This document shows positions 12,437-29,082 of a stretch of 64,000 nt of DNA, one piece after another. Numbering within the stretch: the stretch's first letter is position 1; each line of letters begins with the position of its first letter. Origin of the DNA: an uncultured Acidobacteriota bacterium (GTDB taxonomy: Bacteria > Acidobacteriota > UBA6911); contig CAWJKZ010000010.1 in NCBI GenBank assembly GCA_963843575.1, positions 384,001 to 448,000 on the forward strand. Reading direction: 5' to 3'. The notes beneath the pieces are model-generated. The model did no database searches, had not been told where the DNA came from, and saw only the letters and a program-made list of their open reading frames with translations. A program made the translations under genes and the position numbers.

Positions 12437-12508
12437 GGACGCGGATAAACGCTGGCAGAGCGAATCGTCAGTTCTGATCCGCGTTTCTCCGCGTGCATCC
12501 GCGTACCG
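12437..12508. repeat. REP-like inverted repeat, same family as 742-838
   Basis: ggacgcggataaacgc ... gatccgcgtttctccgcgtgcatccgcgtacc. Confidence 0.55.
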
Positions 12509-12726
12509 CACCGGTCGTCTGGTGCATCCCCATGCCGGCCCGGATGCCGCCGCAGGGCCTTCCCGAGCGATTGGGCCTCTTGAATTTGGTTGCGGTAATT
12601 GAGTATTTTCTAGATGTTGTGTCTCCCCCTCGCTCATCTTATGCCAGCTCCTGTCGAGCATCGATCGCATGAGAAGGGCGTTTTGACGCCGAAGCTCTTG
12701 TCTTTGTCGAACCAGGGAGGTAGAAA

Positions 12727-13554
12727 ATGCTGCCAGGCAAGTCCGCGGCAGTTGTATCCGTCGTGCTCTGTATGGCCGTGCTTGCAGTGCCGGTCGTGCT
12801 TTACCCGGATGACAACTCTCCAATCGAAGTCGGCTACGCCGTGGTCACCCCGACCTCAGCCAACACTTCGGGTCTCGTCGTGTTCGAGACCTTTGGCCAG
12901 AAGCGAGGGAACGACACGACGCAGGCCGGTGTCATACCATCGGAGTTGACAACGGATGCGGTGGTTTTCGTCAACGCCAGCGGGAGGCTGTCCCGAAACC
13001 TGGGGGTGGCCATCGCCAACCCTGGCGCCATCGACGCCACCGTGAGGCTCACGCTTCGCGATCAGAGCGGTGCCGTCCTCGCCACAAGAGACATCACCGT
13101 GGCGGATAAGAACCAGAGAGCTCGATTCGTGACCGAGTTGTTCTCGGGGCAGCCCGATGTCCCCCAAGACTTCGAGGGTACTCTGCTCATTCACTCGTCA
13201 GTCCCGGTTGCCGTGATTGGACTGCGCTTCCGCGGCGATAATTTCAGCACGATTCCGACCACGAACCTTTCAGCGCCTGTCCCGCTGCCTGAAGTCGCTC
13301 CGGGAGTCGGTGGCGCAAGCGCAGTGATATTGCCTCATTTCGCAACCGGCGGCGGCTGGGCGTCGGAAATCGTTCTGGCCAACACGGGGGCTGCACCCCT
13401 GACCGTGAGGGTGGACGTATTCCGGCAGAGCGGTTCACCGTTGACGGTCAGCCTGAATGGTCAAACCCAAAGCAGTTTTCAGGATCTGACGATTCCCGCA
13501 GGCGGCGTGATTACGCTGGCCCCGCGGGACAACCAGGGCGATTCGGTTTTCTAG
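12727..13554 (+). CDS. Secreted beta-rich hypothetical protein; domain shared with the C-terminus of 53050-56217
   Basis: RBS ggaggt, signal peptide, GVAIANP and LPHFATGGGW motifs. Confidence 0.75.
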   Translation: MLPGKSAAVVSVVLCMAVLAVPVVLYPDDNSPIEVGYAVVTPTSANTSGLVVFETFGQKRGNDTTQAGVIPSELTTDAVVFVNASGRLSRNLGVAIANPGAIDATVRLTLRDQSGAVLATRDITVADKNQRARFVTELFSGQPDVPQDFEGTLLIHSSVPVAVIGLRFRGDNFSTIPTTNLSAPVPLPEVAPGVGGASAVILPHFATGGGWASEIVLANTGAAPLTVRVDVFRQSGSPLTVSLNGQTQSSFQDLTIPAGGVITLAPRDNQGDSVF

Positions 13555-13744
13555 ACCTCCTGCGTGGGAAGCAGGGCGGCTGGGTTCGGTCGGCCGTTGC
13601 TCCCGCCTGCGCGCACCGGGTAGGATTCCTGCTCCTCTCCGCGGAACCGCGTGGGGCACTCCGCTGTGACAGTCACGATGCCATGCGCGCACACAAATAT
13701 GGACAGCAGGAGCGAAGCAGTGCAGAATCGGGTGCCAAAACCGC

Positions 13745-13834
13745 GGAGGAATGGCCGAGTGGTTGAAGGCGGCGGTCTTGAAAACCGTTAGGGGGGTAAC
13801 CCCCTCGTGGGTTCGAATCCTACTTCCTCCGCCA
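13745..13834 (+). tRNA. tRNA-Ser (TGA)
   Basis: GGAGGAA acceptor stem pairs with TTCCTCC; D-loop GAGTGG; anticodon loop CT-TGA-AA; long variable arm; GTTCGAATC; encoded CCA. Confidence 0.97.
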
Positions 13835-13880
13835 CCACCTCTAGAATAAACATCTTGCATCCATTACTAGCCACAAATTT

Positions 13881-14141
13881 TCAAAAATGCTTGCGCTGCA
13901 ACTCCGTGCCCGGGTAAACGCGTACGCCCAAAGAAACTCCGGCGCTATCCGGTCCAGCCCGTCTGACGAGCTCCACCGTTTGCCCAATGCTCTCGCTCGT
14001 CTCGCCCGGTGAGCCCAGCAACAGGTCGAGCATGGCCACGATCCCTTGTTCCTTTGCCCAGTGTGTCGCATTAAGGATATCAGCCGGGCTCGGCGCAACA
14101 GGCGGCTGCATACGGTTTGTATTTATCAGTGCTGTCCGCAT
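13881..14141 (-). pseudogene. Internally deleted B12-binding radical SAM gene remnant
   Basis: N-terminal MRTALINTNRMQPPVAP joined in frame to the late-barrel segment LLLGSPGETSESI...GVRVYPGTEL; no CxxxCxxC. Confidence 0.7.
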
Positions 14142-14224: not shown

Positions 14225-14938
14225 TCACGAAGCTCCTGCCTCGACCGCGGCGACGCCAGTATCGTGCTGCACAACGCCGTCCTTCAACAGGATCCTGCGG
14301 CTTGCCATGTTCATGATGCTGGCGTCATGCGTGGAGAATATGAAAGTGACGCCGTTCTGTTGGTTAATGCGCTGCATGAGCTGAATGATCGCAGTTCCTG
14401 TTTCAGAATCCAGGTTCGCGGTCGGCTCGTCCGCCAGCACTATAAGAGGATCGGTAACCAGCGCGCGCGCAATCGCCACGCGCTGGCGCTGCCCGCCGCT
14501 CAGCTGATCCGGCTGGTGCTTCTGCTGCGGTTCCAGATCCACCGCGCACAGCATCTGCTTGACCCGGCGGGCCCGCTCCGCCGGCGGGCACCGTTTCAGT
14601 ATCAACGGGAACTCGACGTTCTCATAGACGTTGAGCACTGGGATGAGGTTGAAATTCTGGAAAATGAATCCGAGTGTATCCCTCCGGAGTGCGGTGGCCT
14701 TTTGATCGTCCAGATTGCTGACGGGCTGTCCGTGCACGTATACCTCCCCGGTGGTCGGCACGTCCAGGCAGCCTATCAGGTTGAGCATCGTGGTTTTTCC
14801 CGACCCAGAAGGCCCTACCACGGCAACAAACTCGCTCTTAGCGATGCGCAGATTGACATGTTTCAGGGCAGCAACGACAGTTTCACCGAGCTGGTAGGTC
14901 TTCCCCGCACCTACAAACTGCACCACCGGCTCCGTCAT
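14225..14938 (-). CDS. ABC transporter ATP-binding protein (LolD/MacB-like)
   Basis: GPSGSGKT, LSGGQRQRVAIARAL, ADEPTANLD and STHD. Confidence 0.95.
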   Translation of the reverse strand: MTEPVVQFVGAGKTYQLGETVVAALKHVNLRIAKSEFVAVVGPSGSGKTTMLNLIGCLDVPTTGEVYVHGQPVSNLDDQKATALRRDTLGFIFQNFNLIPVLNVYENVEFPLILKRCPPAERARRVKQMLCAVDLEPQQKHQPDQLSGGQRQRVAIARALVTDPLIVLADEPTANLDSETGTAIIQLMQRINQQNGVTFIFSTHDASIMNMASRRILLKDGVVQHDTGVAAVEAGAS

Positions 14939-14958
14939 AGCGATCTCCCTCGGGGGAT

Positions 14959-16119
14959 TCACATGTAGTATTTCAACCTTACGGTCACCGAGGACCGCAG
15001 TGGCAAAAGCCCGAATTCACCCCTCCCCCCACTGAAGTTCAGGAACAGGTCCGTACCGAATTCCAGGTGATCGCCGATCAGCCACGTAACAGCTGGCTGC
15101 AGGTATCCCGAACCGTCATCAAGGCAGACCAGGGACCGGGCGCCCCAGCTGAAGTCGTGCTTTTGCCGGTGGTAATATGCCGCGTATGCATAATTCCGGC
15201 GCAAAGTTCCCGGTCCGTATGCGCTCGCTAGCGCATCAGCCGGCTGAAGGGCCCCGGAATCCGAGTCGGACAATGCGCGCACCACATCGAACTCGGCTCC
15301 CGCCAACCCAGAGTCGTCGTGATAGTACTCGAGCGAAAACAGCCCCTTACCCAAAACCGACCTGTTGGCGCCCACGACGAACTTGCCGGTCAGGTCGTGC
15401 TGCCTCCTCTCGACGGTGGGGATTTCGCCCAAAACGGCTGGGTACGTCCGGGGGTTGTTCCAAACCAGTCCACCCTCTCCGTGCATGGTCCAGCCGCCTA
15501 GATTTCTTCTCACCGCTACTCCCAGGGTGCGCTCCCGCCGAGCGCTCCAAAAACCGTTGATATACGCTTCGGTACCGCCCCAGTACGAGTCCATCTGGAT
15601 GCCTGCGTAGGTGTCCCCCGAGTCCCGGACCGCCACAAACTTCGGCGCCACCCTCCCGAGCCGCCGCGAAACCACCAGCATGGGAACACCCGCCGCGAGG
15701 TAATCGGGACGCGACAGGTCGGTCTTGGGCTGTGCCGGGAACGTGGGGTTCCAATAATAAGAATACTGATCCGCATACCGCTCTACGCCGCCGGATACTC
15801 CCCACGTCCCCGGCAATTCCAGGCTCACGAACCCCTCGTCGAACCGGAGAGCATTGACGCGATCGCCGGCCAGGATTCCGTATGTCTGCAAGGTTCCACT
15901 CAGCCTGGCCGATCCGAGCGTTGCTGAACCCTTGCCCCGCAGTACCAGGAATGACTCCCAGCCGGGGACATCCTCATGGTTCGCGTTCTCTGTTGCATTG
16001 TTCAGCCTGCCGATCAGCTCGGCGCTGCCCGACAAGTCCTGGAATGCCCATGCGCCCATCCCCGCCCCCAGGGCCCAGACGCAACCGAGATTGATGAGGA
16101 AACGGCCCAGCTTGACCAT
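14959..16119 (-). CDS. Probable outer-membrane beta-barrel protein
   Basis: Signal peptide, alternating beta-strand pattern, aromatic C-terminus (VRLKYYM), position in exporter operon. Confidence 0.6.
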   Translation of the reverse strand: MVKLGRFLINLGCVWALGAGMGAWAFQDLSGSAELIGRLNNATENANHEDVPGWESFLVLRGKGSATLGSARLSGTLQTYGILAGDRVNALRFDEGFVSLELPGTWGVSGGVERYADQYSYYWNPTFPAQPKTDLSRPDYLAAGVPMLVVSRRLGRVAPKFVAVRDSGDTYAGIQMDSYWGGTEAYINGFWSARRERTLGVAVRRNLGGWTMHGEGGLVWNNPRTYPAVLGEIPTVERRQHDLTGKFVVGANRSVLGKGLFSLEYYHDDSGLAGAEFDVVRALSDSDSGALQPADALASAYGPGTLRRNYAYAAYYHRQKHDFSWGARSLVCLDDGSGYLQPAVTWLIGDHLEFGTDLFLNFSGGRGEFGLLPLRSSVTVRLKYYM

Positions 16120-16120
16120 G

Positions 16121-16882
16121 TTACTTCCTGATGCTCTCGACCGAGAAAATCCCTGGCGCCAGTTTCGCTTCTTTCATGCTTTCAATCGTGATCACGGTGA
16201 AGTCATTGTCCACCGACGCATCGCGCATCTCTATGCGGGATGCCCGCAAACGCCCCGCCAAATGCTTCCGCTCGCTGAACACGCATGTCTTCAGCAGCAT
16301 TCCAGAACGGGCGAAGTAGTCGAATTGCAGGGGGATGTAGGTCTCGCTTTCGACCATCATGCGGATCGAGTGATAGGTGACCCGCGGCGATTTCGCTGCG
16401 CAGCGCAGGACGTAGTGGCGCACGCCGTCATTCTCGACAGTTTTCTCGATTCCGACCTCGTAGTCGTCGCTGTATTCGGTGTCCATCAAGTCGTTGTTGG
16501 CGAAGGTGGAGTCCATGAAGGCCTCTTTGGACGACACTCGGATCGCGTTGGGCAGCCCCGGAATGGAGATCCAGACATTCCGGTCCTTGAAGAGGTAGTT
16601 CTTCCCGACCTCCGTGGGAGGCGACAGGAGGGCTACTATGCTGCCTATCCGTTTTGTCGCCTGCACGTGTATCCTGAAACTCCGTCCCCTCCCTTTCGGC
16701 GGATGGTCGACGAGTGTCATGTCCATCACGAGGGAACCGGGGAACATCGCTTCATCGAGTTCGCGGAGGACCTCCGGGCCTGTCATCGCAGTGCTGCGGG
16801 CCTGCCCGGAGCCGTCAGGCAGACTCGTAGCTATCCAAAGCAGGACGATGCCGACGGTGATGAGCATGCTTGCATGTTTCAT
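16121..16882 (-). CDS. Outer membrane lipoprotein-sorting protein (LolA-like)
   Basis: LSPPTEVGKNYL, FMDSTFANNDL and DYFARSGMLLK motifs. Confidence 0.8.
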   Translation of the reverse strand: MKHASMLITVGIVLLWIATSLPDGSGQARSTAMTGPEVLRELDEAMFPGSLVMDMTLVDHPPKGRGRSFRIHVQATKRIGSIVALLSPPTEVGKNYLFKDRNVWISIPGLPNAIRVSSKEAFMDSTFANNDLMDTEYSDDYEVGIEKTVENDGVRHYVLRCAAKSPRVTYHSIRMMVESETYIPLQFDYFARSGMLLKTCVFSERKHLAGRLRASRIEMRDASVDNDFTVITIESMKEAKLAPGIFSVESIRK

Positions 16883-16886
16883 ACCA

Positions 16887-18119
16887 TCAGTCTCCGTGCA
16901 GGATTTCCACGATATTCACACCACGGGCGCGGATCGCGGCGCGCAATCCACCCAGCCACCCCGAAACCGCGCCCAGAACAAGGCAGCCCGCGTACTCGAT
17001 GGGCCGGCTGATCGTGTAAAAGCGGGGGCTGACCGGGATTGATGACAACTCCCCGACGTCCGTTGGGATGCCGTAGATGCCAAAGTACCAGCAAAACAGT
17101 GCACCCACGACGCAGCCCGCGACCGAGCCCAGCACGCCAATGAGGATTGACTCAGTCGAAACAAGCCCCAGGAGCATGTTTTTGGACATGCCGAGCGCGC
17201 GCATCGTGCCGAACTCGCGCATCCGCTCGAACACGGTCATGGACATGGAGTTGTTCATGATGAAGATCGAGATCAGCAGGAGGATTCCAAAAAAGAAGGC
17301 GAGGAAACGCGTGTCGATGAAAATGTCGGCCACCAGGGCGGTCTCGTAATGGCGCCAGTCGAAAAGCTCCAGTTGTTTCATGGCCGGCTCGCCGAGCTGG
17401 CGCTGCAAGTCGCGCAGCAGCGCTGCCGCATCATTCTCCCGGGCGGCCATGATGGCGATCTCCGTCGACTTGGAACCCATCTCCAGCAAGTCGCGGCCGA
17501 AAGCGATGGGGAGAAAAATGACGGTTTGGTCGAGCGAGTTGAACGGCGGCCGCACGATGCCGAGGACAGCGGCGTCCACGAGGTTCGGCACGTCGTAAAA
17601 CGTCCGCGCCTTCAAACGCACGGAATCACCGACCTTGGCGTGGAGGTCTCTCGCGAGGCGTTCCGTGATCAGGATCCCGGCGTCGTTCTCCTCCAGGTAT
17701 CGCCCCTGCTCGATGCACTCGGGAAGCAGGGAGACGGCCTTTTCCCTTTCCGGGGAGAAGGCCACTGCCGTCGTGTGCAGCACCTCTTCGCCTCTGGACA
17801 TGTAACAGAAGAAGCGGATCCGCTCGGATGCCATGCGCACCCGCGGATCGGAACGTACGATGCTTTCGACGCGGCCTGCCTCGGGAACGGCCAGCGTCAC
17901 CGGGAGCTTACGCGCGATCGTGTCATATCCCTTTGCATGGATCTGCAGGTGCGCAGTCCGATACCGTGTCGCTTTCGTCACTCCGTCCACGATCCGGAAC
18001 CGGTACACGCCGACGAAGAAAACGATCATGGACAGGCAGACAATAAAGGCGGCCATGTCCAGCAGTGTCCGTCTGGGATTCCGCAGCACATTACGGTACG
18101 CCAGCCACAGCAACTCCAT
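16887..18119 (-). CDS. ABC transporter permease (FtsX/LolE-like)
   Basis: AYRNVLRNPRRT and ERMREFGTMRALGM motifs; 4 TM. Confidence 0.9.
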   Translation of the reverse strand: MELLWLAYRNVLRNPRRTLLDMAAFIVCLSMIVFFVGVYRFRIVDGVTKATRYRTAHLQIHAKGYDTIARKLPVTLAVPEAGRVESIVRSDPRVRMASERIRFFCYMSRGEEVLHTTAVAFSPEREKAVSLLPECIEQGRYLEENDAGILITERLARDLHAKVGDSVRLKARTFYDVPNLVDAAVLGIVRPPFNSLDQTVIFLPIAFGRDLLEMGSKSTEIAIMAARENDAAALLRDLQRQLGEPAMKQLELFDWRHYETALVADIFIDTRFLAFFFGILLLISIFIMNNSMSMTVFERMREFGTMRALGMSKNMLLGLVSTESILIGVLGSVAGCVVGALFCWYFGIYGIPTDVGELSSIPVSPRFYTISRPIEYAGCLVLGAVSGWLGGLRAAIRARGVNIVEILHGD

Positions 18120-18133
18120 ACGACACCGTTCAA

Positions 18134-19351
18134 CTATTTGAAAGTGAGGGCTTTCAGCGGCTGCATCTTCCCTGCCAGATGCGCCGGGTAAAAGGCTCCC
18201 AGAAGCGACACCAGGATACCGACACAGAAACAGAAGACAGCGATCTGTCCCGAAAAGGTGGGGTAGATGATCCGGGCGATGCCATCGAGTTCCGGGCCCA
18301 TGTCGATCCCGCGAATCGCCACGATGCGGATTGCCACGGCACCGAGTGCCACACCCAGAAGCGACCCGATCAAGCCCACCAGTCCCGTCTCAGTCATTAC
18401 CATCGCCATCAGCGCCTTCCGCGACATGCCGATCGAGCGCATCGTCCCCAGGATACGAATCCGCTCGAACACCGAAATCAGGTGCGTGTTGACGATGCCG
18501 AAGGTGATCACAGCGACGATGATCGAAAACAGGATGACGATGACGGTGTTGACCCAGACAAGCCCCACGGCAACCTCCGCGTAAATGCTTTTCCACGGAT
18601 GCGCCCGGAGGCCTGCGCGGGAAAAAGAGGCGTTGAATGCAGCGACCATCGTGCCCGTCGACTCCGGGTCCTTCAGGCGGACCAGGATCGAACTGGACGC
18701 ACCCTGGACCTGGAGGAGAGTGCGGACCAATTCGATGCTCGCCAGGACGAGAAACTCGTTCTCGTCGGTCTTGTCCGTCTCGAAGATCCCTGCTACCGAG
18801 GCCTCTACTGCGTTGACGCCGCCGTTGCTGTTGTAAGCCATGAGGGTTAGCCGCGTTCCCGGATTGAGTTTGAGGTATGCCGCTGTAGGTTTGCCCAGCA
18901 GGATTTCGCCGGGCGCGTCCGGGAACCGGCCCAAGACCAGGGCCTGCCTGTACCGGGTGTTCCACCTCAGGTCGCGGGTGTCCACTCCACGGATCAGAGC
19001 ATCAGCTGATTGATCGGGACCCAGGATCATGCCGCCGCATACTAGCTCCTCCGTCGCTGCGTCCACCCATGGGTTTGCCCGTACGGACCGGAGCGCCGCC
19101 TGGGGATCCTCCACAAGCAGGCTGACGGGAAGAGTCGAGGCCTGCTCGAGATAGCCCTGCCGCTGGATGCAGATGTGTCCGATCGTGTCGAAGGCCAACG
19201 CCAGGAACATCTGCTTCATCCCGAGGAGAAAGCCCAAGGCAAAGGTCAAAACCGCGATGCTCAGGGCCACCGCGCTCAGCACGGCGACGGAGCGATGCCT
19301 GTCTTTGACGGCGTGACGAGCCGCCACCTTCAAAACCGTTCCGCCTCCCAT
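18134..19351 (-). CDS. ABC transporter permease (FtsX/LolC-like)
   Basis: VFERIRILGTMRSIGM and FYPAHLAGKMQPLKAL motifs. Confidence 0.9.
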   Translation of the reverse strand: MGGGTVLKVAARHAVKDRHRSVAVLSAVALSIAVLTFALGFLLGMKQMFLALAFDTIGHICIQRQGYLEQASTLPVSLLVEDPQAALRSVRANPWVDAATEELVCGGMILGPDQSADALIRGVDTRDLRWNTRYRQALVLGRFPDAPGEILLGKPTAAYLKLNPGTRLTLMAYNSNGGVNAVEASVAGIFETDKTDENEFLVLASIELVRTLLQVQGASSSILVRLKDPESTGTMVAAFNASFSRAGLRAHPWKSIYAEVAVGLVWVNTVIVILFSIIVAVITFGIVNTHLISVFERIRILGTMRSIGMSRKALMAMVMTETGLVGLIGSLLGVALGAVAIRIVAIRGIDMGPELDGIARIIYPTFSGQIAVFCFCVGILVSLLGAFYPAHLAGKMQPLKALTFK

Positions 19352-19355
19352 CGAC

Positions 19356-20069
19356 TCACCGCGCGCCTTTCGATGACGTCAACTTTCCTTCGAGTTCCGG
19401 CAGCAACCTGTTCGGTTTTCCATCCATCTCGTCGAAGAGATCGAATTCATAAAACGGGACCTTGATCCTGCGCCGGTTGAGCTGGCGGCTGAGGAATCCT
19501 ATGAAGATCCCGGGGCCCGGCCTGGATACCTTCCGCAGCACCTCGTTCTGCTCGTCCGCGGTAACCTTGTCGATTTCCACCTTGGAGCTCCACTCGAAGT
19601 ACTCGCGCAGATCCGGGTGAGAGGTCACCGCACATGTCGGCGAACCGCGGATCCCGACTATCCCGACGACGTTCATGCCTTCCCTCAGGTAGTCGGCAAT
19701 CTCCCTGGCGGTGTATCTGGCAACCCAGCGCATCCTCCAGTTCAGGACGAAGAGATACAGCGGCATCAAGAACGCGAACACGGCATGGACGATCTTGCAT
19801 CTGCCCATTCCGTGAAACTGGTACACGTGCTTTTTATAGATGCCGCCCCAGGCCACCCTCTCGGGGCAGATCATCTGGATGACACCGCAGTCCGTCCTCG
19901 CGACAAGAAGGCGGAGGATCTCGGGATTCACTCCCTTTGCGAATGCGCCGCCCATGTAACGCGTGTTAGCGTTGAGCAGACAGTGAGACAGGAAGAGCAC
20001 CCGGTTGCCGCGCCGGTCGCTCAGCCGCTCACGCAGGGTGCACATTGTTCTTGGAAACAGCGTTTTCAT
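19356..20069 (-). CDS. DUF523/2-thiouracil desulfurase (TudS)-like Fe-S protein
   Basis: SHCLLNANTRY, ICPE and GSPTCAV cysteine motifs. Confidence 0.65.
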   Translation of the reverse strand: MKTLFPRTMCTLRERLSDRRGNRVLFLSHCLLNANTRYMGGAFAKGVNPEILRLLVARTDCGVIQMICPERVAWGGIYKKHVYQFHGMGRCKIVHAVFAFLMPLYLFVLNWRMRWVARYTAREIADYLREGMNVVGIVGIRGSPTCAVTSHPDLREYFEWSSKVEIDKVTADEQNEVLRKVSRPGPGIFIGFLSRQLNRRRIKVPFYEFDLFDEMDGKPNRLLPELEGKLTSSKGAR

Positions 20070-21288
20070 GACACTCCAGCGGGTTGCGCCAGCGGCATGC
20101 GACCGCGTAGTCCATGCAGCGCCGGAACATCTCGTAGTCGACTTCCGGGCAGCGCACGACGCTGTCGGCTTCCAGGATCGCGTCCGCCCGGGCAGTATCG
20201 AACTGCCGGCTATCGCTCATGTAGGGCAGGTAGACCCGACAGAAGTTCTCGTAACGCCGTTCCAGCGCGGTCTTGGGCGCGGCCGGGAACACCTCGGCCG
20301 TGCAGACACGGCTTCCTTTCAGACCGAGATAGTGCTGGCCCCAGGCGACCAGTGTCTCCAGGGTACAGGGATGCTTGTTGACAAGGTGGTACATGCCGGA
20401 ATCGGCCGCACGGGTCATGATGGCGCGAAAAGCCTCCACGACGAAGTCGATCGGGACAAGGTTGATGACCCCGCCGGTGTCAGTTCCCGTGTCGAACCGG
20501 ATAGGGACTTCAAGAGTCCCGTCGGGCTCCTGCCGGATACCGAGCCTCGAGGCAAGCCGCCCCTGGTTTTCGGCAAAATCCTTGCGGAATTCGTTCGCGA
20601 GGTACTCTGCCACCTTGACCGGGTAGTACATGGCGTTGAAAAGCAGCGTCCTGCCGCGTTTGGAGTCGCCGATGATGACGGAGGGCCGGTAAATGGACAG
20701 GCGGATGCCGGAACCTTCACAGGCGTCAATCAGAAGCTTTTCAGCTTTGTTCTTTGATGCTTCGTAGGCGTTGTGAAAACCTTCCGGTTCCCGCCATGAC
20801 TCGAGGCACAGGCCCACTACCTTCCCGACACAATATGCCGTGCTGAGGTAGTGAATGACCGAGCAACAGCCGGCCTGCGCCAGCTCGAGGACCCGTCGCG
20901 TCCCTCCAACGTTGATTTCGTACGTCGTCTCTTTGTCTTTCTCCTGGAAGCTGGTGTAAGACCCGCAGTGCACAATCTCGTCGACCTGGCGCGCGAGATC
21001 GAGGAAATCAGCCGGTGCGCATCCCAGTCTCTCCCTGCTCAGCTCGCCCTCAACGATCTGAAGCTCGGGACCGGACTCAATGCCGTGCCACTCAAGGACT
21101 CTCCGGACCCGCTCCCGGGCGCTGTGTTCCTTCCCCGCACGTGCCAGCACAACAACGCGGTACCCGTCGCGGAGTAACGACGCTGCGACATGGCTGCCCA
21201 CAAATCCGGTCGCGCCGGTCAGGAAAACCACAGCAGAGCGGTTCTGGCGCGCTCTCTGGATCTCCGAAACAGATGCCCTCATCACCAT
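20029..21288 (-). CDS. Extended SDR (thioester/fatty-acyl reductase-like, NAD_binding_4)
   Basis: FLTGATGFVG, STAY, YEASK and RPSVIIGDS. Confidence 0.8.
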   Translation of the reverse strand: MVMRASVSEIQRARQNRSAVVFLTGATGFVGSHVAASLLRDGYRVVVLARAGKEHSARERVRRVLEWHGIESGPELQIVEGELSRERLGCAPADFLDLARQVDEIVHCGSYTSFQEKDKETTYEINVGGTRRVLELAQAGCCSVIHYLSTAYCVGKVVGLCLESWREPEGFHNAYEASKNKAEKLLIDACEGSGIRLSIYRPSVIIGDSKRGRTLLFNAMYYPVKVAEYLANEFRKDFAENQGRLASRLGIRQEPDGTLEVPIRFDTGTDTGGVINLVPIDFVVEAFRAIMTRAADSGMYHLVNKHPCTLETLVAWGQHYLGLKGSRVCTAEVFPAAPKTALERRYENFCRVYLPYMSDSRQFDTARADAILEADSVVRCPEVDYEMFRRCMDYAVACRWRNPLECHENAVSKNNVHPA

Positions 21289-21376
21289 ACAAGAAACCAG
21301 ATCTCTGATGGCGTCTGACAGCGCATCCGAGCGCTGTCAGAGCGGCATAGAACATCGGGCGGACGCCCCGGAGCAG

Positions 21377-23275
21377 TTATCCGCCCGCACAGAGCTCGCT
21401 GTCATTCCCTTCGTAGCAGCCAAAGAGATACGTCTCCGGGCGCGACATCCCCTGCATCAAGATCCACTCGCCCGAACAGACGAACCCGGGCCTCGCTGAA
21501 AGCTGGGCAACCAGTTCCGCCGATTCCTTCATCGCCTCGCGCATCGCCTCGACATGCGCCGGGTTCGTCTGGTCAAAGTAATAGTCGTACTCCATCAGCC
21601 CACGGGTCCCTTCCTCCAGCGGCACCAGGTAGCCGAACCCGTGTCTGAGGCCGTGTCGTTCGCCGACCTCGCCGAGCCTGTCGCATGCCTGGATGATCGA
21701 GCGCGGATCCTCGAGCGCATAGTAGAGCACCCGCGAGATAAACTGCTCTCCCCTCCCCATCCGGGCGGGCAGGATGCGAAAGCTGTTCAACCATAGCGGG
21801 TCCGACCGTTCGGGGTTGCGGCGCAAAGCAGTGAAGAAGTCCCGCATGTCCTCGTGCACATCCTCGTCCACTATGGAAGCGCTCGAGCGCAGGGATATCT
21901 CCAGCAGGGGCCGCATGTCGGGCGCAAAGATCTCACGGTAGTCACCCTGCGCCCCCTCCTCGCCCATGATCAGCTGGAACCCCGGCTCTCGGTGCAGCAT
22001 CGATAGGCCCCGGAGCATGAGCGAGGCAAGTTCTGCGTCGAGCACTGGGGACGCGAAGTTCCCGATCGAGGCGAGTGATCCGCGGTCCCCGAGCACCACC
22101 ACAAAGGCCTGAATGCCGAGACACCTTACGAGGGTGTCCGCGACCTGCGTTACGGTCTGGGAGCTCGAGGCGGCGAAGATGGAAAGATAAAGGCTGCCGA
22201 TCACCCCCAGGCCGACGCCGATCCTTCGCCGAGCGATGTTACGCGCCAGCGAAATGGCCTCTTCGATGCTGCCGCACGGCACGAGCGCGCTGCTCTCGTC
22301 CGGACCGATGGCGTGCAGCCGAAGCTGCAGCCCCGTGCAGATCCCGAGCGGTCTTACCTGCCGTCCTTTTCGGAAGAAGAACGGGTTCGGCGACCCATCT
22401 CCGCTTAAGCGGTAGATCTCGCCCGCAGGGCTGACGAATTCGGCGTCAATGTAATGGTTGGCTCCGATCCCATACCCGTAGGAGAAGAAAGAATGCATGT
22501 TCGTATGAATCACATTGGCGCACACCGATGCCGCGGGTTCGGCTACGTTGGCCCTCATTCCGTGATGCGACGCGGCCTTCTGCAGATCAAACGCCGAGAC
22601 GCCGGGCCCCACCCAGACACACCACCTTGCATCATCGATGCGGATTGCGTCCATGCGGCCGAGGTCGATTACGAGCCCGGGCGTCAGGGCGCCAGCAAGG
22701 CTCGTCGCCGCACCGCGGGCCAGGTACGGCAATCCACGGCGAGTGCACAGCTTCACGAGCTCCGCCACCTCGTGCGAGGACGACGGAAGGGCAACGTACT
22801 GGGGGCGGATTTCGTCGCAAAGCGGAGACCTCGCCCGCGCATAGCTCGCCGTGATTGCCGGATCCGAACTGCACCACTTCGGGCCGACAATAGCCGCGAT
22901 CTCGTCAATCACGGGATCCCGGATCGGTTCCACCGCGCTGTGCCGGACCGACGCGACATGAGACGCGAACGCGTCGAATATTCTGGATGTCCGGAGGCCG
23001 GCGACGAAATAGCACTGTTTGTCGCAGATACCGCACTTCCGGCACGACAGCGCGACCTCAACAAGCATCGGCGTCAACGGGACGAGCCCCCGTCGGTAGG
23101 CGCTGATCACCTGCATTCTTCCCTGTGGATAGAACGCCGCGAAACGTCGCTGCAATGCTACAGGACAGGTGCCGGTGTCCAGGAAATCGATACGGCACAT
23201 CCCGTAGCCGGAACAGCGGTCCGCTTCGGCGGTGTCCTCCAGGAATCGCGAACTTTTTTGGATTTCAGCATCCAT
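21377..23275 (-). CDS. Fe-S dicluster + FAD-binding (FAD_binding_4/VAO-type) oxidoreductase
   Basis: N-terminal CSGYGMC...CP and CRKCGICDKQC; then P.YVALPSS..EV...RGAATSL...VIDLGRMD..VGPGV; ATG at 23275. Confidence 0.75.
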   Translation of the reverse strand: MDAEIQKSSRFLEDTAEADRCSGYGMCRIDFLDTGTCPVALQRRFAAFYPQGRMQVISAYRRGLVPLTPMLVEVALSCRKCGICDKQCYFVAGLRTSRIFDAFASHVASVRHSAVEPIRDPVIDEIAAIVGPKWCSSDPAITASYARARSPLCDEIRPQYVALPSSSHEVAELVKLCTRRGLPYLARGAATSLAGALTPGLVIDLGRMDAIRIDDARWCVWVGPGVSAFDLQKAASHHGMRANVAEPAASVCANVIHTNMHSFFSYGYGIGANHYIDAEFVSPAGEIYRLSGDGSPNPFFFRKGRQVRPLGICTGLQLRLHAIGPDESSALVPCGSIEEAISLARNIARRRIGVGLGVIGSLYLSIFAASSSQTVTQVADTLVRCLGIQAFVVVLGDRGSLASIGNFASPVLDAELASLMLRGLSMLHREPGFQLIMGEEGAQGDYREIFAPDMRPLLEISLRSSASIVDEDVHEDMRDFFTALRRNPERSDPLWLNSFRILPARMGRGEQFISRVLYYALEDPRSIIQACDRLGEVGERHGLRHGFGYLVPLEEGTRGLMEYDYYFDQTNPAHVEAMREAMKESAELVAQLSARPGFVCSGEWILMQGMSRPETYLFGCYEGNDSELCAGG

Positions 23276-23291
23276 CGACGATCTCCGCACC

Positions 23292-23654
23292 TCACCGGGG
23301 CCCTTGCCGCTGTTTCGATAATTCCTGCACGGACGCCGACAGAACGGAAGCAAATCGCAGGATATCTACGATATTCCCGGAGGTATGGATCAGGCCGCTC
23401 AACTTACCCGCAAGAGGCGTGATCTGACGGCGGGCGAGAAGATCCAACGTTTCCTCGCTCAGCCGGAACGAGATGTCAGGCGGGAGGGCACACGAATCGC
23501 ACACGACAGCATTCCCGTCAGCCACCTGCACGGAGAAAACGGACTCGCCGACGGTCAGGCCGACGTTCCTGTTCCACCCTCGAAGCATGCGCCCGACCTG
23601 CGCACTTGCCTTGCCTGCGTCGATAATGGCCTGAATCTGCTCCAGTGCGCCCAT
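23292..23654 (-). CDS. SCP2 sterol/lipid-binding domain protein
   Basis: PDISFRLSEETL...ITPLAGKLSGLIHTSGN pattern typical of SCP2. Confidence 0.7.
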   Translation of the reverse strand: MGALEQIQAIIDAGKASAQVGRMLRGWNRNVGLTVGESVFSVQVADGNAVVCDSCALPPDISFRLSEETLDLLARRQITPLAGKLSGLIHTSGNIVDILRFASVLSASVQELSKQRQGPR

Positions 23655-23681
23655 GAACTCTCCCTTGGCCGCGGGTTTTAT

Positions 23682-25140
23682 TCAATGGCTCGAGAGCCTT
23701 TCTGGGGGAAGGTAACGAGACAGATCCGTCTGTTCCATCCAGGCAGTCTCCGACCGGATCAGGCGGTGGGCATGTCCTTGCTTCCTGGTTGCGTCGATGC
23801 CCATCTTCACGGAGAAATCCCCGACCCGGGCGGCGTCGGTCAATTCGCCCGTGGCCTCGAGAACCATCACATCTCGGAGCGCAACAACCCTCGTGTCGGT
23901 CGCCCACTGCACATCGAACGGGTCGTAGACGTCGATGTCGTCGTCCACCACCACCACCCTTTTTAACCTGGCGGAGAAGGCAAACAACGCCCGCAGGATG
24001 TCGTAAGGCTCGCTCGCACTCTGCTTGTAGATAGACACGGCCAGCCCGGTCCCGGGCACCCCGGGGCAGCATGAATAGATCCTTGATGTTGGGAGATATC
24101 GATCCCAGGAACGCGCGTGTTTTCGCGAGCTCCGTCATCCCAAGGGGCATGATGAGCGACATCATTTCGAAAGAGGTGCAGACCAGGCTGTGGAACATAG
24201 GGTCCTCCCGAGTCCGCACAGCCTTGATTTCGACCGGGAAGCTTTCGGTGGCTTGGCTGGCCACGAGGTCGTACTCGGTAAACGGGCCTTCCCGTACCCG
24301 CTCCTCGGGGTGGAGCACTCCCTCGAGCAGGTACTCGGCGTCTGCAGGCACGGGGAGGTCAACGGTCTCAGCCTGCGCGAGCCTGAACGGCGATTGCGTG
24401 AGCCCGCCGGCGACGCAATACTCGCTCTGGCCGAACGGTACGCTCATGGTGGCGGCCCACAGCATCTCGGGTGCGACACCTACCGCGATGGCAATGGGCA
24501 GGGATCTGCCTTTCCGGGCCGCACGGTGAATTATGGCTAGCAGGTCGCGTTTGGCGTTCACCATCATCACCATCCGCTGCCGGTCCAAGACCTGAATGCG
24601 GTAGATCCCGGCGTTTACATAGTTGTTTTCGGGATCGCGGGCCACGGTCACAGCCGCGGTTAGGTAAGGTCCCGCATCCTCCCGGAAGTACCATGGGGCC
24701 GGGACCTGGCGCGTCAGGTCCACGTCGCAACCCATATGCGAGACGGGCCACGCGCCCTCGCAATGGACGGGATCGACAGGGTGAGCCAGGGCGTGCAGGA
24801 CGGATTTTTCCACGTCCCGGTATATCGACAGGTACATTTCGTTGGAAGACCACAGCGGATAGACGATACCAGGCTTGCGCAGCCCGGAGTAAAAGCTCAG
24901 GAATTCCGGCTGCAGGGGAACCGTTGGGAGTATCCCCGTCCGGAGCGGGGTCAGGAAAATGTTCCCCACGATGCGCCCGGGATACCCGCGCAGCCTTTCG
25001 AAAAGGACGCTCTGCAGGTGTTTCTTCTCGATCTGCCACTGGAGGGCCGCGAGTTCATGACGGGTATCGACGCACGTGTCTACCCGCACCAGATGGCCGA
25101 AATCGTCCAGTTCCTGAATGTACTCTCTCAGTTCCGGCAC
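23682..25140 (-). CDS. UbiD-family (prFMN-dependent) decarboxylase with a one-base frameshift near 24065
   Basis: EDAGPYLT, NAGIYRIQ and EGPFTEY; the C-terminal VVVDDDIDVYD..VQWA and KMGIDAT lie in a second frame. Confidence 0.88.
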
Positions 25141-25160
25141 CGGGCCCCCGATTGATCGCC

Positions 25161-25424
25161 CTACGCTTCAGCCGAGCGCTGCTGGTTGATCCTCCCGAAC
25201 ACGTAGTCGGCGATGTCCTTGACTGTCCTGGCAGCCTTCTCGAGGTCCTGCGGGATCTCGATATCGAAGTTCTCTTCGATTTGCCACACGATTTCGACAG
25301 CCGACAGTGAGGTGGCGTCCAGGTCCTCACGAAGCCGCGAGTCCGGTTTGATCTCGGCGGGGTCAGTCTCAAGGTTCTCCGCGATGATCTCGATGATTTT
25401 GCGTTGAACGTCATCGTATGTCAT
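25161..25424 (-). CDS. Acyl carrier protein with atypical attachment motif
   Basis: EDLDATSLSAVEIVWQIEENFDIEIP; start overlaps the fabF stop (ATGA). Confidence 0.88.
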   Translation of the reverse strand: MTYDDVQRKIIEIIAENLETDPAEIKPDSRLREDLDATSLSAVEIVWQIEENFDIEIPQDLEKAARTVKDIADYVFGRINQQRSAEA

Positions 25425-26677
25425 GACACCTCCACTCTCTTCAACACGAGGCAAGCGTTACAGCTGCCGAACCCGAAGGAATTTGAAAGGGCCGCCCCCA
25501 CCGGTGTGCGCCGCGCCGCATTCGGCACATAATCGAGATCGCAATCCGGGTCTCTGCATTCGTAGTTGATTGTGGGGGGGATGATTCCCCGGTCCAGAAC
25601 CAGCGCGGTGACAAGCGCCTCGATGGCTCCCGCGGCCCCGATCGTGTGCCCGATCATCGACTTAGTGGACGAAATCGGCACCTGGTACGCCCGGTCGCCG
25701 AAGACCTCCTTGATCGCCAGCGTTTCTGCCGCGTCGTTCAGAGTCGTTGAGGTCCCGTGCGCGTTGATGTAACCGACGTCCTCCAGCACAAGCCCGGCAT
25801 CGCGGATGGCTCCGCGGATGACGCGTGCCGCATCCTTGCCGTCGGGCTGCGGCATGACGATGTGATAGGCGCCACAGCCCGCCGAGTATCCGGCGACTTC
25901 AGCGTAAATTCGGCGATTCCTACGGACGGCCCGTTCCAGTTCCTCGAGGACTAGCATGGCCCCGCCCTCAGACATCACGAAGCCATCGCGATCCTTGTCG
26001 AACGGGCGGGAAGCCTCTTGGGGCGTGTCGTTCCGTTTCTTCGACAGCGCGCCCAACGCCGCATAGGACCCATAGGTGAATCGCGTCAGGGGAGCCTCGA
26101 CGCCACCGCAGAGGCACACATCGATTTCCCCGGTGCGGATTTTTCCCAACGCCTCGCCTATAGCGATGGCGCCGGAAGTGCACGCGGCGGAGATGACGAG
26201 ATTGGGCCCCCACAGACCAAACTGGATTGCGATGTGGCCGGCAACGGCGTTGGGTGATACTCTGGGCACCGAGAGGGGGTTGATCCTATGCACTCCCTTG
26301 TCGTAGGCGGCCATCATCTGTTCCTCGTGGAAGGCGATGCCTCCCAGTCCGGAACCGACGACTACTCCGATCCTGGCGGAATCCTCCCGGTTCAGATCCA
26401 GCCCGCTGTCCTCGAGCGCCATCCGTGCCGCGGCGACCCCGTAGTGGACGAAACGGTCCGTTCTTTTTGCAGTGGCGGACGGCATGTACACGGACGGGTT
26501 GAAATCCTTGATTTCACCTGCAATCCGGGATTCGAAATCGGAGGAGTCGAATCGGGTAATTTGGCCAATACCGGACCGGCCTTCGACATTCGCCTGCCAG
26601 AAGGCCTCGAGACCAACTCCATTTGGTGCAACTACTCCCACGCCAGTGACCACTGCACGGTTCGTAGCCATTTGCAC
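25421..26677 (-). CDS. fabF: Beta-ketoacyl-ACP synthase II
   Basis: Catalytic AACTSG, NAHGTST and KSMIGH; SNSFGFG. Confidence 0.92.
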   Translation of the reverse strand: MQMATNRAVVTGVGVVAPNGVGLEAFWQANVEGRSGIGQITRFDSSDFESRIAGEIKDFNPSVYMPSATAKRTDRFVHYGVAAARMALEDSGLDLNREDSARIGVVVGSGLGGIAFHEEQMMAAYDKGVHRINPLSVPRVSPNAVAGHIAIQFGLWGPNLVISAACTSGAIAIGEALGKIRTGEIDVCLCGGVEAPLTRFTYGSYAALGALSKKRNDTPQEASRPFDKDRDGFVMSEGGAMLVLEELERAVRRNRRIYAEVAGYSAGCGAYHIVMPQPDGKDAARVIRGAIRDAGLVLEDVGYINAHGTSTTLNDAAETLAIKEVFGDRAYQVPISSTKSMIGHTIGAAGAIEALVTALVLDRGIIPPTINYECRDPDCDLDYVPNAARRTPVGAALSNSFGFGSCNACLVLKRVEVS

Positions 26678-26918: not shown

Positions 26919-27585
26919 TCCCTGAACCGCAAATGTCAGCTTGAGCCGTCGAGGCCCTGCGTTACGCGCTGGGGCACAGGGCAGCAAACCCCACTGCGCA
27001 CCTGGCCCTGGCGCTCACCATGTCGAGCAAAAGGATCGCCGGCGATCTCGACCGCATCGTCGAGGCCGCCGCGCAGTCCATCGATCGGCGGCTGACATAC
27101 GAACAGGCGCTGCGCGATCACTTCGCGCGGCTTCGCGTACACTCCCAGGGATTCATGTTCTCGCTCGACGGCATCCAAGCGGAGTACCGGCAAAAATGAG
27201 ACATCACCCTGTGGGGCCGCCGTGTGCCTAAGGGAGAACCACATGCGATACGAGGAGTTTCGCAATCAGCTCCAGGATGCTCTCGTTCAGGTGCGTCTGC
27301 TTGACCGGCGCCCCTGGGACATTTTCCCATCCCCTATCGTCCGGGATTTCATGCATCAAAACCCAGACGTGTGCATGTTATTTCATGACGCTGCCCAAGC
27401 TGGAGGCCGAAGATCCGGAATCCTTGAGCCTGATGCTCTCAATCCCGGGGGAGAATTTTCTTAGCAGCAGCATAGTTCCATGATTTACTGGTTTACTGGA
27501 GAGTTGGGTGTTGAAATCTCCAACTTCTCCAGCTACATTCCGTGCCACATCCGATGCTCAACCGCATCTTGGAAAGGGGACGCCA

Positions 27586-29082
27586 TTGAGTACAAAACTG
27601 AGCCGCAGAAGGTTTATTGGTGCATCCGGAGCTGGTATAGCCGGAGCCGGTCTGGCTAGTTCCAACATTCTGGCCGGGCGCGCTGAGATTGGAGAACAAT
27701 CGCCTCCAGATCGCATAAGACAGGAGTCTGGCAAACAGCACACACAGAAATTCAACATGTCTGGTTATCGTGCTCCCAAGATCGACCTGGTGCGTGTCGG
27801 CTTTATCGGCCTTGGAAGCCGGGGACCAGGTCATGCCAGAAACATGAGCCTTCTGGAGGGGGTTGGAGTCAAGGCGTTATGCGACATCGTTCCGGAGGAG
27901 GCAGAAAAAGCAAGGAAAGGGATTGAATTTGCAGGTTTTAATCCGACCCTGTACACGGGCGATTCCGAGGCGTGGAAGAAGCTATGCGACCGGGATGATA
28001 TCGACCTTGTCTACATCTGTACTCCCTGGAACTTACATGCGCAGATGGCGGTTTATGCAATGGAACACGGCAAGCATGTTGCCATTGAAGTTCCTGCAGC
28101 CGATACCCTCGAAGAGTGCTGGCAGCTTGTCGAAACATCCGAGAAGACCAGGAAGCATTGCATGATGATGGAAAACTGCTGCTACGACTTCTTCGAGCTC
28201 CTGACTCTGAATATGGCGCGGCAGGGGTTCTTTGGCGATATCGTGCACGGGGAAGGCGCCTATATACACACTCTGTTAGAGGGTAATTTTAGCAGGAATG
28301 GATATTGGAATATGTGGCGCCTCAGAGAAAATGCAGACAGGCGCGGCAATTTATATCCGACACACGGCCTGGGTCCAATATGCCAAATAATGGACATTAA
28401 CAGGGGCGACAAGATGGATTACCTCGTATCCGTCATGGGCAGCGATTTCTTGATGAACGAGACGGCCAAGAAACTGTCAGCGACAGACAATTTCTTCAAG
28501 GAATTCGTTAATCGGCCATATAGAGGCAATATGACCACGACTTCGATCCGTACCAGCAAAGGACGGACGATACTGCTGCAGCATGACGTAACATCACCAA
28601 ATGTTTATTCCAGGATCCACAAGGTCAGCGGCACCAAAGCTTCGGCGCTGAAATATCCTCTTCCCCCTAAGATCGCCATCGGTCATCGTGAATGGGTTTC
28701 GGATGAGGAGTTCAAGTCGCTTGAAGAAAAGTACGCCCCTCCCATTGTGAAGAGAGTAGGTGAAATGGCCAAGCAGGTTGGCGGTCATGGCGGCATGGAC
28801 TTTCTTGAAGACTGGCGCCTGATTGATTGCCTTCGCAATGGATTGCCTCTCGACCAGGACGTCTATGATGCGGCGCTTTGGACCGCTATCGCACCATTAA
28901 GTGAATGGTCGGTTGCTAACCGCTCAAATTCGATTGACGTGCCTGATTTCACAGGCGGATCATGGAAAACCAACAAACCGGTGGACGTATTCTTGGAAGA
29001 GGGCGGGAATACAAAGGTGATCAGAGCGGCGCCACCCAGAGCGCGCAGAGTACAACCCGCGGTCGAAGGAGTAGAAAACTAA
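27586..29082 (+). CDS. Tat-exported Gfo/Idh/MocA oxidoreductase, GH109 (alpha-N-acetylgalactosaminidase-like)
   Basis: SRRRF, GFIGLGSRG, MMMENCCY, LYPTHGLGP and GGHGGMDF; TTG start after an AG-rich RBS. Confidence 0.9.
   Translation: MSTKLSRRRFIGASGAGIAGAGLASSNILAGRAEIGEQSPPDRIRQESGKQHTQKFNMSGYRAPKIDLVRVGFIGLGSRGPGHARNMSLLEGVGVKALCDIVPEEAEKARKGIEFAGFNPTLYTGDSEAWKKLCDRDDIDLVYICTPWNLHAQMAVYAMEHGKHVAIEVPAADTLEECWQLVETSEKTRKHCMMMENCCYDFFELLTLNMARQGFFGDIVHGEGAYIHTLLEGNFSRNGYWNMWRLRENADRRGNLYPTHGLGPICQIMDINRGDKMDYLVSVMGSDFLMNETAKKLSATDNFFKEFVNRPYRGNMTTTSIRTSKGRTILLQHDVTSPNVYSRIHKVSGTKASALKYPLPPKIAIGHREWVSDEEFKSLEEKYAPPIVKRVGEMAKQVGGHGGMDFLEDWRLIDCLRNGLPLDQDVYDAALWTAIAPLSEWSVANRSNSIDVPDFTGGSWKTNKPVDVFLEEGGNTKVIRAAPPRARRVQPAVEGVEN

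Follow-up and report, generated by a model that had tools for sequence, protein, structure and literature searches.

An operon of twelve genes in an uncultured Acidobacteriota bacterium (lineage UBA6911) would, as we read it, make a hydrophobic product and carry it to the outer membrane. The operon lies in a stretch of 64,000 nucleotides (nt) that was analysed as a whole (hereafter the window: NCBI GenBank assembly GCA_963843575.1, contig CAWJKZ010000010.1, positions 384,001 to 448,000 of the forward strand). It was probably acquired horizontally, and it would have at its core a widespread redox pair, an iron-sulfur (Fe-S)/FAD flavoprotein and an extended short-chain dehydrogenase/reductase (SDR). 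We put the probability of this reading at roughly 45%. The product would be a reduced, possibly decarboxylated lipid for the outer membrane, where we infer the substrates, the order of the steps, and the product from the genes. The gene content of the operon, the folds of its proteins, its synteny, the conservation of the pair, and the absence of the operon from relatives are directly supported. In our view, the cluster belongs with operons that build and export an envelope lipid, arranged here around a pair of unassigned function. Relative to the initial annotation of this DNA, the analysis adds a frameshift in the UbiD gene, the recognition of the pair as the conserved unit, and a link between this pair and UbiE-type methyltransferases.

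The open reading frame (ORF) listing of the window places 12 ORFs on the minus strand from 26677 down to 14225 in one operon-like block, with intergenic gaps in transcription order of -4, 20, 27, 16, 88, -41, 4, 14, 4, 1, and -4 nt. This order and spacing (-41 to +88 nt) agree with their earlier description as 12 co-oriented, mostly abutting genes. In transcription order, with lengths in amino acids (aa) where they serve as names, the genes are:

25421..26677, minus strand: FabF-type beta-ketoacyl-acyl carrier protein (ACP) synthase II (PF00109 193.7 and PF02801 131.4 bits; TIGR03150 545.3 bits, cut-off 493.75)
25161..25424, minus strand: ACP (PF00550 51.2 bits; NF002148 71.9 bits, cut-off 71)
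23682..25140, minus strand: UbiD-family decarboxylase with a +1 frameshift (PF01977 185.8 bits)
23292..23654, minus strand: SCP2-fold protein of 120 aa (AlphaFold model and Foldseek)
21377..23275, minus strand: Fe-S/FAD flavoprotein of 632 aa (FAD_binding_4, PF01565, 84.6 bits, cut-off 26.4)
20029..21288, minus strand: NAD_binding_4 extended SDR of the thioester-reductase/FAR type (PF07993 146.6 bits, cut-off 20.1)
19356..20069, minus strand: DUF523/TudS-like protein (PF04463 19.8 bits, cut-off 34.7; NF045597 77.7 bits, cut-off 130)
18134..19351, minus strand: LolC/E-like FtsX permease 1 (FtsX 56 and MacB_PCD 39.8 bits)
16887..18119, minus strand: LolC/E-like FtsX permease 2 (FtsX 70.2 and MacB_PCD 36.2 bits)
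16121..16882, minus strand: LolA-like periplasmic carrier (PF17131 116.5 bits, cut-off 30)
14959..16119, minus strand: porin-like protein of 386 aa, without a Pfam or NCBIfam match
14225..14962, minus strand: LolD/MacB-type ABC ATPase (ABC_tran 114 bits; LolD TIGR02211 228.5 bits, cut-off 307.75)

Families were assigned from Pfam and NCBIfam profile scores against curated cut-offs, and overall these bear out the gene names given earlier, except that the DUF523 protein falls below the cut-offs, the SCP2 protein is recognised by its fold only, and the exporter is rather a Lol-like set that crosses the whole envelope. The FabF scores above the TIGR03150 equivalog cut-off and is the second copy in the genome, with the probable housekeeping FabF at C14:716078 (653 bits); the ATG of the ACP gene at 25424 overlaps the FabF stop by 4 nt. 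The two permeases do have the FtsX plus MacB_PCD architecture, and the equivalog models for LolCDE are not reached (lolCE TIGR02212 102.6 and 78.9 against 362.45 bits; LolD 228.5 against 307.75 bits). The 386-aa protein begins with a signal-like hydrophobic stretch and its nearest ESM Atlas clusters are named ‘Porin’ and ‘alginate export’ (feature score 0.98, a lead only); it is probably an outer-membrane barrel. In the DUF523/TudS-like protein, about 70 hydrophobic residues are inserted between Cys-containing motifs, and three Cys-containing stretches resemble the motifs of the family. Aryl polyene clusters are marked by a ketosynthase (KS)/chain length factor pair with ketoreductase (KR), dehydratase (DH), and aryl-ACP ligase, ole clusters by OleA/B/C, and elb clusters by the multidomain ElbD; Pfam finds these signature domains absent from the 12 ORFs, and OleD models score 25.8–33.9 bits against a cut-off of 580, so the cluster was rightly set apart from these types. 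Pfam also finds no ubiX, fabG, or fabZ among the 12 ORFs, as had been stated. A UbiX-like gene (192 aa) lies elsewhere in the genome at C25:131669, as do another UbiD and one strong UbiE/MenG gene. From the other FabF and UbiD copies and this UbiX-like gene it follows that the copies in the cluster are extras and that ubiX can be supplied in trans; one publication likewise describes ubiX as possibly lying elsewhere in the genome than UbiD (PMC11350588).

The genes of the cluster do co-occur elsewhere, as their treatment as one pathway in the initial annotation presupposed, in the form of a nine-gene syntenic locus, a fragment, and a recurrent pair. The syntenic locus (L013, from an Acidobacteriota metagenome-assembled genome (MAG)) has 9 of the 12 genes in the same order, from UbiD to the ABC ATPase, at 40–75% identity, and is without the FabF, the ACP, and the DUF523-like gene; the 386-aa protein is 40% identical to the gene in the equivalent position. 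A short metagenome contig (L102) carries UbiD, SCP2, and the flavoprotein. The DUF523/TudS-like protein has no tblastn match in the 159 related loci, L013 included, that were examined with the 12 window proteins (79 of them genome loci). Three closer homologues of the flavoprotein are present in other assemblies at 61, 58, and 49% identity. Among 40 relatives of the window genome (a count that includes G034, flagged unpublished), no orthologue of the flavoprotein was found, the best match being to the FAD domain (E 1.4e-19, about 32% identity), and the 386-aa protein had no match at E<=1e-8. In a genome of the same genus (G001, 81% complete), the best flavoprotein match is at 2.7e-14, and a comparison with the DNA of the region finds only the flanks, on other contigs. 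The cluster is rare, and the operon was probably acquired horizontally. No close relative of the window UbiD was found in five other genomes that carry the pair, where the best match is 32% identical, which suggests that the UbiD-SCP2 module is specific to the acidobacterial branch. A search of openly accessible main texts (subscription journals and supplements aside) returned no description of the domain pair or of the cluster, no characterised member of the pair, and no match to a characterised cluster.

The conserved unit is the two-gene pair and not the twelve genes. In a set of 185,579 species genomes, 308 out of 330 pattern matches proved to encode a relative of the flavoprotein, as did 281 out of 343 in metagenome contigs. 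Where at least 1300 nt of sequence follow the flavoprotein, the SDR is directly downstream (its start -150 to +700 nt from the flavoprotein end) in 105 of 116 loci (genomes, 62 of 66; metagenome contigs, 43 of 50). Many pairs have a 4-nt start/stop overlap, and mostly no co-directional gene follows. The 79 genome loci span 18 named phyla, including Bacteroidota (19), Thermodesulfobacteriota (15), Spirochaetota (5), Bacillota (4), Aminicenantota (4), Nitrospirota (3), Chloroflexota (3), and a Methanophagales MAG (2). Most organisms with the pair are anaerobes from sediments, soils, or digesters, and it is present in the cultured Desulfobulbus alkaliphilus DSM 24258, in Desulfonatronum species, and in Geofilum rubicundum JCM 15548. 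The flavoprotein tree is discordant with taxonomy, and the window protein sits on a long branch (1.23). The SDR keeps its Gly-rich NAD(P) motif TGxTGFxGSH and the catalytic YxxxK in all 23 orthologues aligned, and among solved proteins it is closest to thioester-reductase domains (MxaA 3e-19; the reductase domain of a type I polyketide synthase (PKS) 1.5e-18); on TIGR01746 it reaches 136.2 bits, under the cut-off of 213.35. Complex prediction for the two proteins gave a score of 0.59, with 0.00 for the best of 3 controls, and a verdict of ‘weak support’; of 157 solved complexes, 116 reach the mark, as do 2 of 215 mismatched pairs, and scores no higher than 0.60 belong to only 18 of those 157 complexes and to both of the mismatches that passed. 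Contact agreement between runs was at least 88% and partner pLDDT at least 85. Because the coupling of the genes is tight, the flavoprotein and SDR are likely to form a physical complex.

The flavoprotein probably starts at the ATG at 23275, which gives 632 aa, the same as database entry P0006. In the AlphaFold model (pLDDT 88, pTM 0.89), residues 1–115 form a Cys-rich helical domain and residues 116–629 a VAO/PCMH fold, and both the FAD_binding_4 match and Z scores of 18–21 over residues 116–629 to many members (VIA) place the latter in that superfamily. In an alignment of 24 sequences, C27, C37, C78, C81, C84, C88, and D30 are invariant and C21 nearly so, and since these seven conserved Cys include a CxxCxxCxxxC pattern beside a second, atypical set, we consider the N-terminal part to be an Fe-S domain. 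Pfam reports Fer4_8 in one homologue, and sister Atlas clusters carry Fer4_17 and Fer4_8. The invariant or near-invariant residues further include R351, R500, R505, R508, R612, E562, D564, D568, and C313. H321 is the only His conserved at 75% or more among 24 family members, and none is conserved in the C-terminal half or in the cap domain. Our statements on the active site derive from residue conservation alone. By structure, mouse D-lactate dehydrogenase (8jdb, Z 20.9, rmsd 3.4, 387 residues aligned) and 4-ethylphenol oxidase (7pbi, Z 20.7) tie as best matches, followed by eugenol oxidases (about Z 20.5) and vanillyl-alcohol oxidase (about Z 19), while AGPS is absent from the 50 best structural matches (VIA). 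By sequence, the matches to solved proteins cover only the FAD domain: glycolate oxidase 7.3e-26, D-lactate dehydrogenase 2.7e-25, and AGPS 5e-14. The glcD model TIGR00387 gives 41.8 bits against a cut-off of 567.9.

D-2-hydroxyacid dehydrogenases bind a metal with two His and one Glu, and the family has no conserved His counterpart of this site; AGPS works with a catalytic His loop, a Tyr, and an Arg in its cap domain, and, as said, the C-terminal half of the family has no conserved His; 4-phenol oxidases have a Tyr-Tyr-Arg phenolate site, to which the invariant F499-R500 of the family may or may not correspond. Because it appears to have neither the His/His/Glu metal site nor the AGPS His loop, the flavoprotein would be a separate branch of the VAO/PCMH superfamily. 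A profile search of 1.84 billion representatives returned 22,665 proteins at E<=0.001, of which only 123 are at E<=1e-30. Among the matches listed, full-length members score above about 350 bits and FAD_binding_4 proteins that share the FAD domain only score about 150 bits or less, a gap that suggests a well-delimited family. Source records call the members ‘FAD-binding oxidoreductase’, ‘ferredoxin’, or ‘hypothetical protein’ and nothing more specific, and names of the same kind are given in the Atlas.

The neighbours of the pair within 5 kb, annotated by Pfam and NCBIfam in the 159 loci, recur in a way that points to an exported hydrophobic product, either a lipid or quinone-like. In 10 loci by a strict score, and in 19 by a looser clustering, the pair has a UbiE/MenG-type methyltransferase beside it, in every case encoded on the strand of the pair. 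The methyltransferase gene is upstream of the pair in Aminicenantota and Syntrophales, downstream of it in the remaining Thermodesulfobacteriota. Each of the five neighbouring methyltransferases tested passes TIGR01934, a model for a subfamily of quinone methyltransferases (204–234 bits, cut-off 158). In two genomes the copy beside the pair outscores a second copy (G041, 231 vs 170 bits; G043, 200 vs 169 bits), and in G042 it is the only copy. ABC exporters of the MacB/FtsX type are found in 7 of the 159 loci, accompanied by HlyD in L047 and a TolC-like OEP in L090, and just past the 5-kb limit L126 has a MacB/FtsX exporter with a LolA_like gene. Five loci encode a FabK-like NMO protein, and three (L126, L130, L169) a ketosynthase with a FabA-like dehydratase and/or an ACP.

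In the assembly, the UbiD gene of the window is interrupted. The listed ORF (540 aa) closes with an Arg-rich tail running into the following gene, and the N-terminal and Rift domains share one frame (25140 to about 24060) whereas the C-terminal domain is encoded in another, which runs to 23682. Compared with the intact L013 homologue (484 aa, all three domains), the frameshift amounts to one extra C in a CCCC run at about 24059–24062, and in the alignment the break falls between ‘...KDLFMLP’ and ‘GVPGTGL...’. The two parts are 64% and 71% identical to that homologue and show no other defect. Seven public read runs contained 5–8% of sampled words, and the four of them that were compared with the stretch yielded only pieces of 151–262 nt at >=99% identity, none of them over about 24040–24070. 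In L013, the SDR (11863–12998) and the second permease (14289–15455) each match in two pieces, as if frameshifted, so that single-base indels may be common in assemblies of this kind and may be errors of assembly. Entry 6h6v (7e-60), which we take to be HmfF, is the closest solved protein to the L013 UbiD, and the window UbiD is not an equivalog of UbiD/MqnL (NF008175 109 vs 788 bits; TIGR03701 146 vs 496 bits). The 120-aa protein next to it has no Pfam match, its L013 homologue reaching 19.6 bits against the SCP2 cut-off of 21.3, and its AlphaFold model (pLDDT 89.6) has only SCP2 proteins as top Foldseek matches (AF1534 1.1e-6, UbiJ-SCP2 2.6e-6; TM 0.6–0.68). On the strength of this model, the SCP2-fold protein probably carries a hydrophobic ligand.

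As a pathway, we propose that the extra FabF with its own ACP would build or extend an acyl chain, and that the SDR, dependent on NAD(P)H, would reduce the thioester-bound carboxyl to an aldehyde or alcohol and thereby release the chain. The Fe-S flavoprotein, probably in complex with the SDR, would carry out a redox reaction without oxygen on that carbon or on its neighbour, receiving or giving electrons through its own N-terminal Fe-S domain. UbiD, with prenylated FMN supplied by a UbiX-like gene elsewhere in the genome, would decarboxylate an intermediate, an unsaturated or aromatic acid, that the SCP2-fold protein holds, and the LolCDE-like ABC transporter, LolA-like carrier, and porin-like protein would take the product across the envelope. 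A lipid is favoured because of the FabF and ACP, the KS/DH/ACP and FabK-like genes beside the pair, the thioester-reductase type of the SDR, the SCP2 fold, and the Lol-like route. Dissociated KS and ACP, release by a thioester reductase, and a MacB/DevCA-type exporter or LolA-like carrier are also found together in heterocyst glycolipid systems (with DevBCA export) and aryl polyene systems (LolA-like). DevA and DevC match in the window below their NCBIfam cut-offs, and unlike those clusters the window has no glycosyltransferase, KR, DH, second KS, or MMPL pump; we know of no counterpart in them to UbiD or to the Fe-S flavoprotein. According to PMC11350588, alpha,beta-unsaturated acids are turned into terminal alkenes by UbiD enzymes of polyketide pathways; the TtnD/SmdK type described there resembles our case in that UbiD stands in a chain-building context and could give a terminal alkene, but these pathways differ in having a type I PKS and ubiX inside the cluster.

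Several observations weigh against the operon as a lipid pathway. Each of its steps is proposed from sequence and structure models rather than from biochemistry. The fold of the flavoprotein is equally like D-lactate dehydrogenases and 4-phenol oxidases, which fits more than one substrate class, and its cap domain, compared by sequence with solved structures, finds no match better than E 0.34. The UbiD of the window is frameshifted, and the absence of FabF, ACP, and the DUF523-like gene from L013 suggests that these may be add-ons. Neighbours of the lipid type are few (3, 5, and 7 of the 159 loci), and the UbiE/MenG-type methyltransferase, as the neighbour most often above a curated cut-off, points to quinone-like over acyl chemistry. 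In most loci, the pair stands alone or amid housekeeping genes and is not by itself evidence for a lipid.

The UbiE-type neighbours, the UbiD with its SCP2 partner, and the equal match to 4-phenol oxidases (Z 20.7, tied for best) keep alive a reading in which the operon tailors a quinone or phenolic lipid, and we regard this as unlikely. Here, the target of the pair would be a hydroxy-aromatic head group, at its carboxyl or benzylic carbon, with the SDR reducing an aryl thioester to the aldehyde or alcohol and the flavoprotein performing an O2-free version of PCMH/VAO quinone-methide chemistry in either direction, while UbiD and SCP2 would act like UbiD with UbiJ/UbiT and a UbiE-type enzyme would methylate the ring. 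The methyltransferases that pass TIGR01934 on the same strand in Thermodesulfobacteriota and Aminicenantota, their better-scoring or sole status in three genomes, and UbiJ-SCP2 among the best matches of the 120-aa protein all speak for it, and as in the ubiquinone route (UbiD/UbiX with UbiJ/UbiT) a UbiD lies beside an SCP2-fold protein with ubiX in trans. However, the cluster differs from the ubiquinone route in having no prenyltransferase, hydroxylase, or methyltransferase, and a UbiD that is no equivalog; neither the window cluster nor that of L013 has a UbiE, a prenyltransferase, or an aryl-acid ligase. The FabF and ACP and the KS/DH/ACP and FabK-like neighbours are better suited to acyl chemistry, the five other pair-carrying genomes gave no close relative of the window UbiD (best match 32% identical), and the Tyr-Tyr-Arg phenolate site of 4-phenol oxidases could not be aligned, with F499-R500 at a possibly equivalent place.

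It is rather improbable that the pair is a catabolic or respiratory dehydrogenase module, in which oxidation of an alcohol or hydroxy acid by the flavoprotein, which would pass the electrons on, would leave a carbonyl product for the SDR, and the fatty-acid, UbiD, and transporter genes of the window would be unrelated neighbours. In sequence, the closest enzymes to the FAD domain are D-lactate and glycolate dehydrogenases. The pair is for the most part a bicistronic unit by itself or, in one lineage, amid housekeeping genes, and its patchy, accessory distribution (about 0.2% of species genomes, 308/185,579) with a tree discordant with taxonomy fits such a module; the sole MenG-type gene of G042, adjacent to the pair, could mean a quinone-linked dehydrogenase. 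Yet no conserved His corresponds to the His/His/Glu metal site of D-2-hydroxyacid dehydrogenases, and the SDR is a member of the thioester-reductase branch rather than a classical ketoreductase. The synteny of nine genes with L013, together with the 4-nt overlaps, speaks for the window genes as a single unit, and KS/DH/ACP genes adjoin the pair in three independent loci. A variant would have the pair oxidise and then reduce its substrate as an epimerase, like DprE1/DprE2 of mycobacteria, where an FAD_binding_4 oxidase and an NAD(P)H reductase are encoded side by side, form a complex, and act in sequence on a lipid-linked substrate. DprE2 is a classical SDR and not of the NAD_binding_4 type, and DprE1 is without an Fe-S domain; the NCBIfam match to DprE1 is weak (E 1.2e-4, a marginal similarity).

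Among the lipid options, the ether lipid offered in the initial annotation is the least supported, and we hold it to be very unlikely; the decarboxylated alkene or aryl lipid that it gave as the alternative stays a candidate. In the ether reading, the SDR would make a fatty alcohol as FAR does, and the flavoprotein would exchange acyl for alkyl on an acceptor like acyl-DHAP, as AGPS does. Indeed, the FAR plus AGPS route of eukaryotes and of Myxococcus (MXAN_1676) combines the same two families, a NAD_binding_4 reductase and a VAO-fold FAD_binding_4 flavoprotein, on lipid substrates, AGPS is a detectable relative of the FAD domain (5e-14), and the carriers are largely anaerobes of sediments. 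The AGPS-like step is not supported on several counts, however: the Fe-S domain, which AGPS lacks, implies a net electron transfer that AGPS chemistry does not need, the C-terminal half of the family has no conserved His to match the His loop of AGPS, the FAD domain is closer to glycolate oxidase and D-lactate dehydrogenase (7e-26 vs 5e-14), and AGPS is not among the 50 best structural matches. The carriers of the pair, as anaerobes, also differ from the organisms of the FAR plus AGPS route. No gene for a dihydroxyacetone phosphate acyltransferase was seen among the annotated neighbours. The bacterial ether routes named in two sources are ElbD, AGPS, and PlsA/Ger, with Ger alone giving alkylglycerols in E. 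coli (PMC11150832; 10.64898/2026.06.23.733905).

A bolder view of the pair, to which we give little credence, is that it is an unrecognised oxygen-independent system that takes a thioester carboxyl past the aldehyde or alcohol and has spread by transfer over at least 18 phyla. The SDR would deliver an alcohol, and the flavoprotein, fed by its Fe-S domain, would remove or replace the oxygen by quinone-methide-like or ether-forming chemistry to leave an alkyl, methyl, or ether product; the acidobacterial operon would be the most elaborate version and would make a new outer-membrane lipid.

If our preferred reading of the operon as an exported-lipid pathway is true, no fuller version of the pathway is known than that in the window, and its core pair is present in at least 18 named phyla with no function assigned. 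The lipids and quinones of such anaerobes serve as environmental and geological markers, and the pair has no place in the routes known so far to bacterial lipids that are reduced or ether-linked (ElbD, AGPS, PlsA/Ger). Fe-S-coupled VAO-fold enzymes would extend a family best known for its oxidases by a branch that works without oxygen. The pair is small, self-contained, and present in cultured strains, so its function is directly testable.

Other neighbourhoods of the pair are recorded here for completeness. In five loci (L046, L053, L058, L020, and L048; Aminicenantes-type and one Acidobacteria locus), genes for a 470-aa FabK-like NMO protein and a 265-aa protein without a family precede the pair, often alongside a D-Ala-D-Ala-ligase-like ATP-grasp enzyme. 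A conserved ten-gene neighbourhood on about 20 metagenome contigs was considered and set aside as the housekeeping synteny of one Dehalococcoidia lineage (enolase, GAPDH, helicase, Fur, FtsY, Lgt). About 25 metagenome contigs (L113–L162) and L027 carry the pair of this lineage, in which the flavoprotein is longer (match about 630 aa). A link to the methyl-plastoquinone pathway was likewise rejected: MpqE is near the top for the neighbouring methyltransferases, yet scores 223–257 bits against a cut-off of 335, and the passages on the published pathway name no such flavoprotein or SDR (10.1101/2024.07.27.605408). The Methanophagales MAG has two flavoprotein copies of about 40% identity (L014 and L016), and in L014 a reductase gene is upstream and not directly downstream of the flavoprotein, with genes for BioY, biotin carrier, biotin carboxylase, and carboxyltransferase after it. 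These archaeal copies could reflect gene transfer or a binning artefact.

The flanks of the operon are unrelated to it. Past its last gene, by 390 nt, lies a tRNA gene:

13745..13834, plus strand: tRNA-Ser(TGA) (ARAGORN; Rfam 59.2 bits)

An adjacent tRNA-Ser is a weak hint of an island and of a possible insertion site; no direct repeats of at least 16 nt flank the region, and no integrase was seen. On the other side, a divergent GH109-like oxidoreductase gene starts at 27508. Small ORFs at 13435–14141 and 26936–27834 have no family match and no counterpart in L013 or L126. Across the region, a promoter and terminator scan gave counts not above those of shuffled sequence, and an Rfam scan found the tRNA only and no riboswitch. 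Further along the window, at 29334–33812 on the minus strand, two ORFs of 377 and 365 aa each have a KdpD sensor domain, the second also Usp. A response regulator and a histidine kinase with DUF4118 come after them, with a BBP2 porin next at 33885–35492; KdpD thus appears to be split into pieces over 29334–33812.

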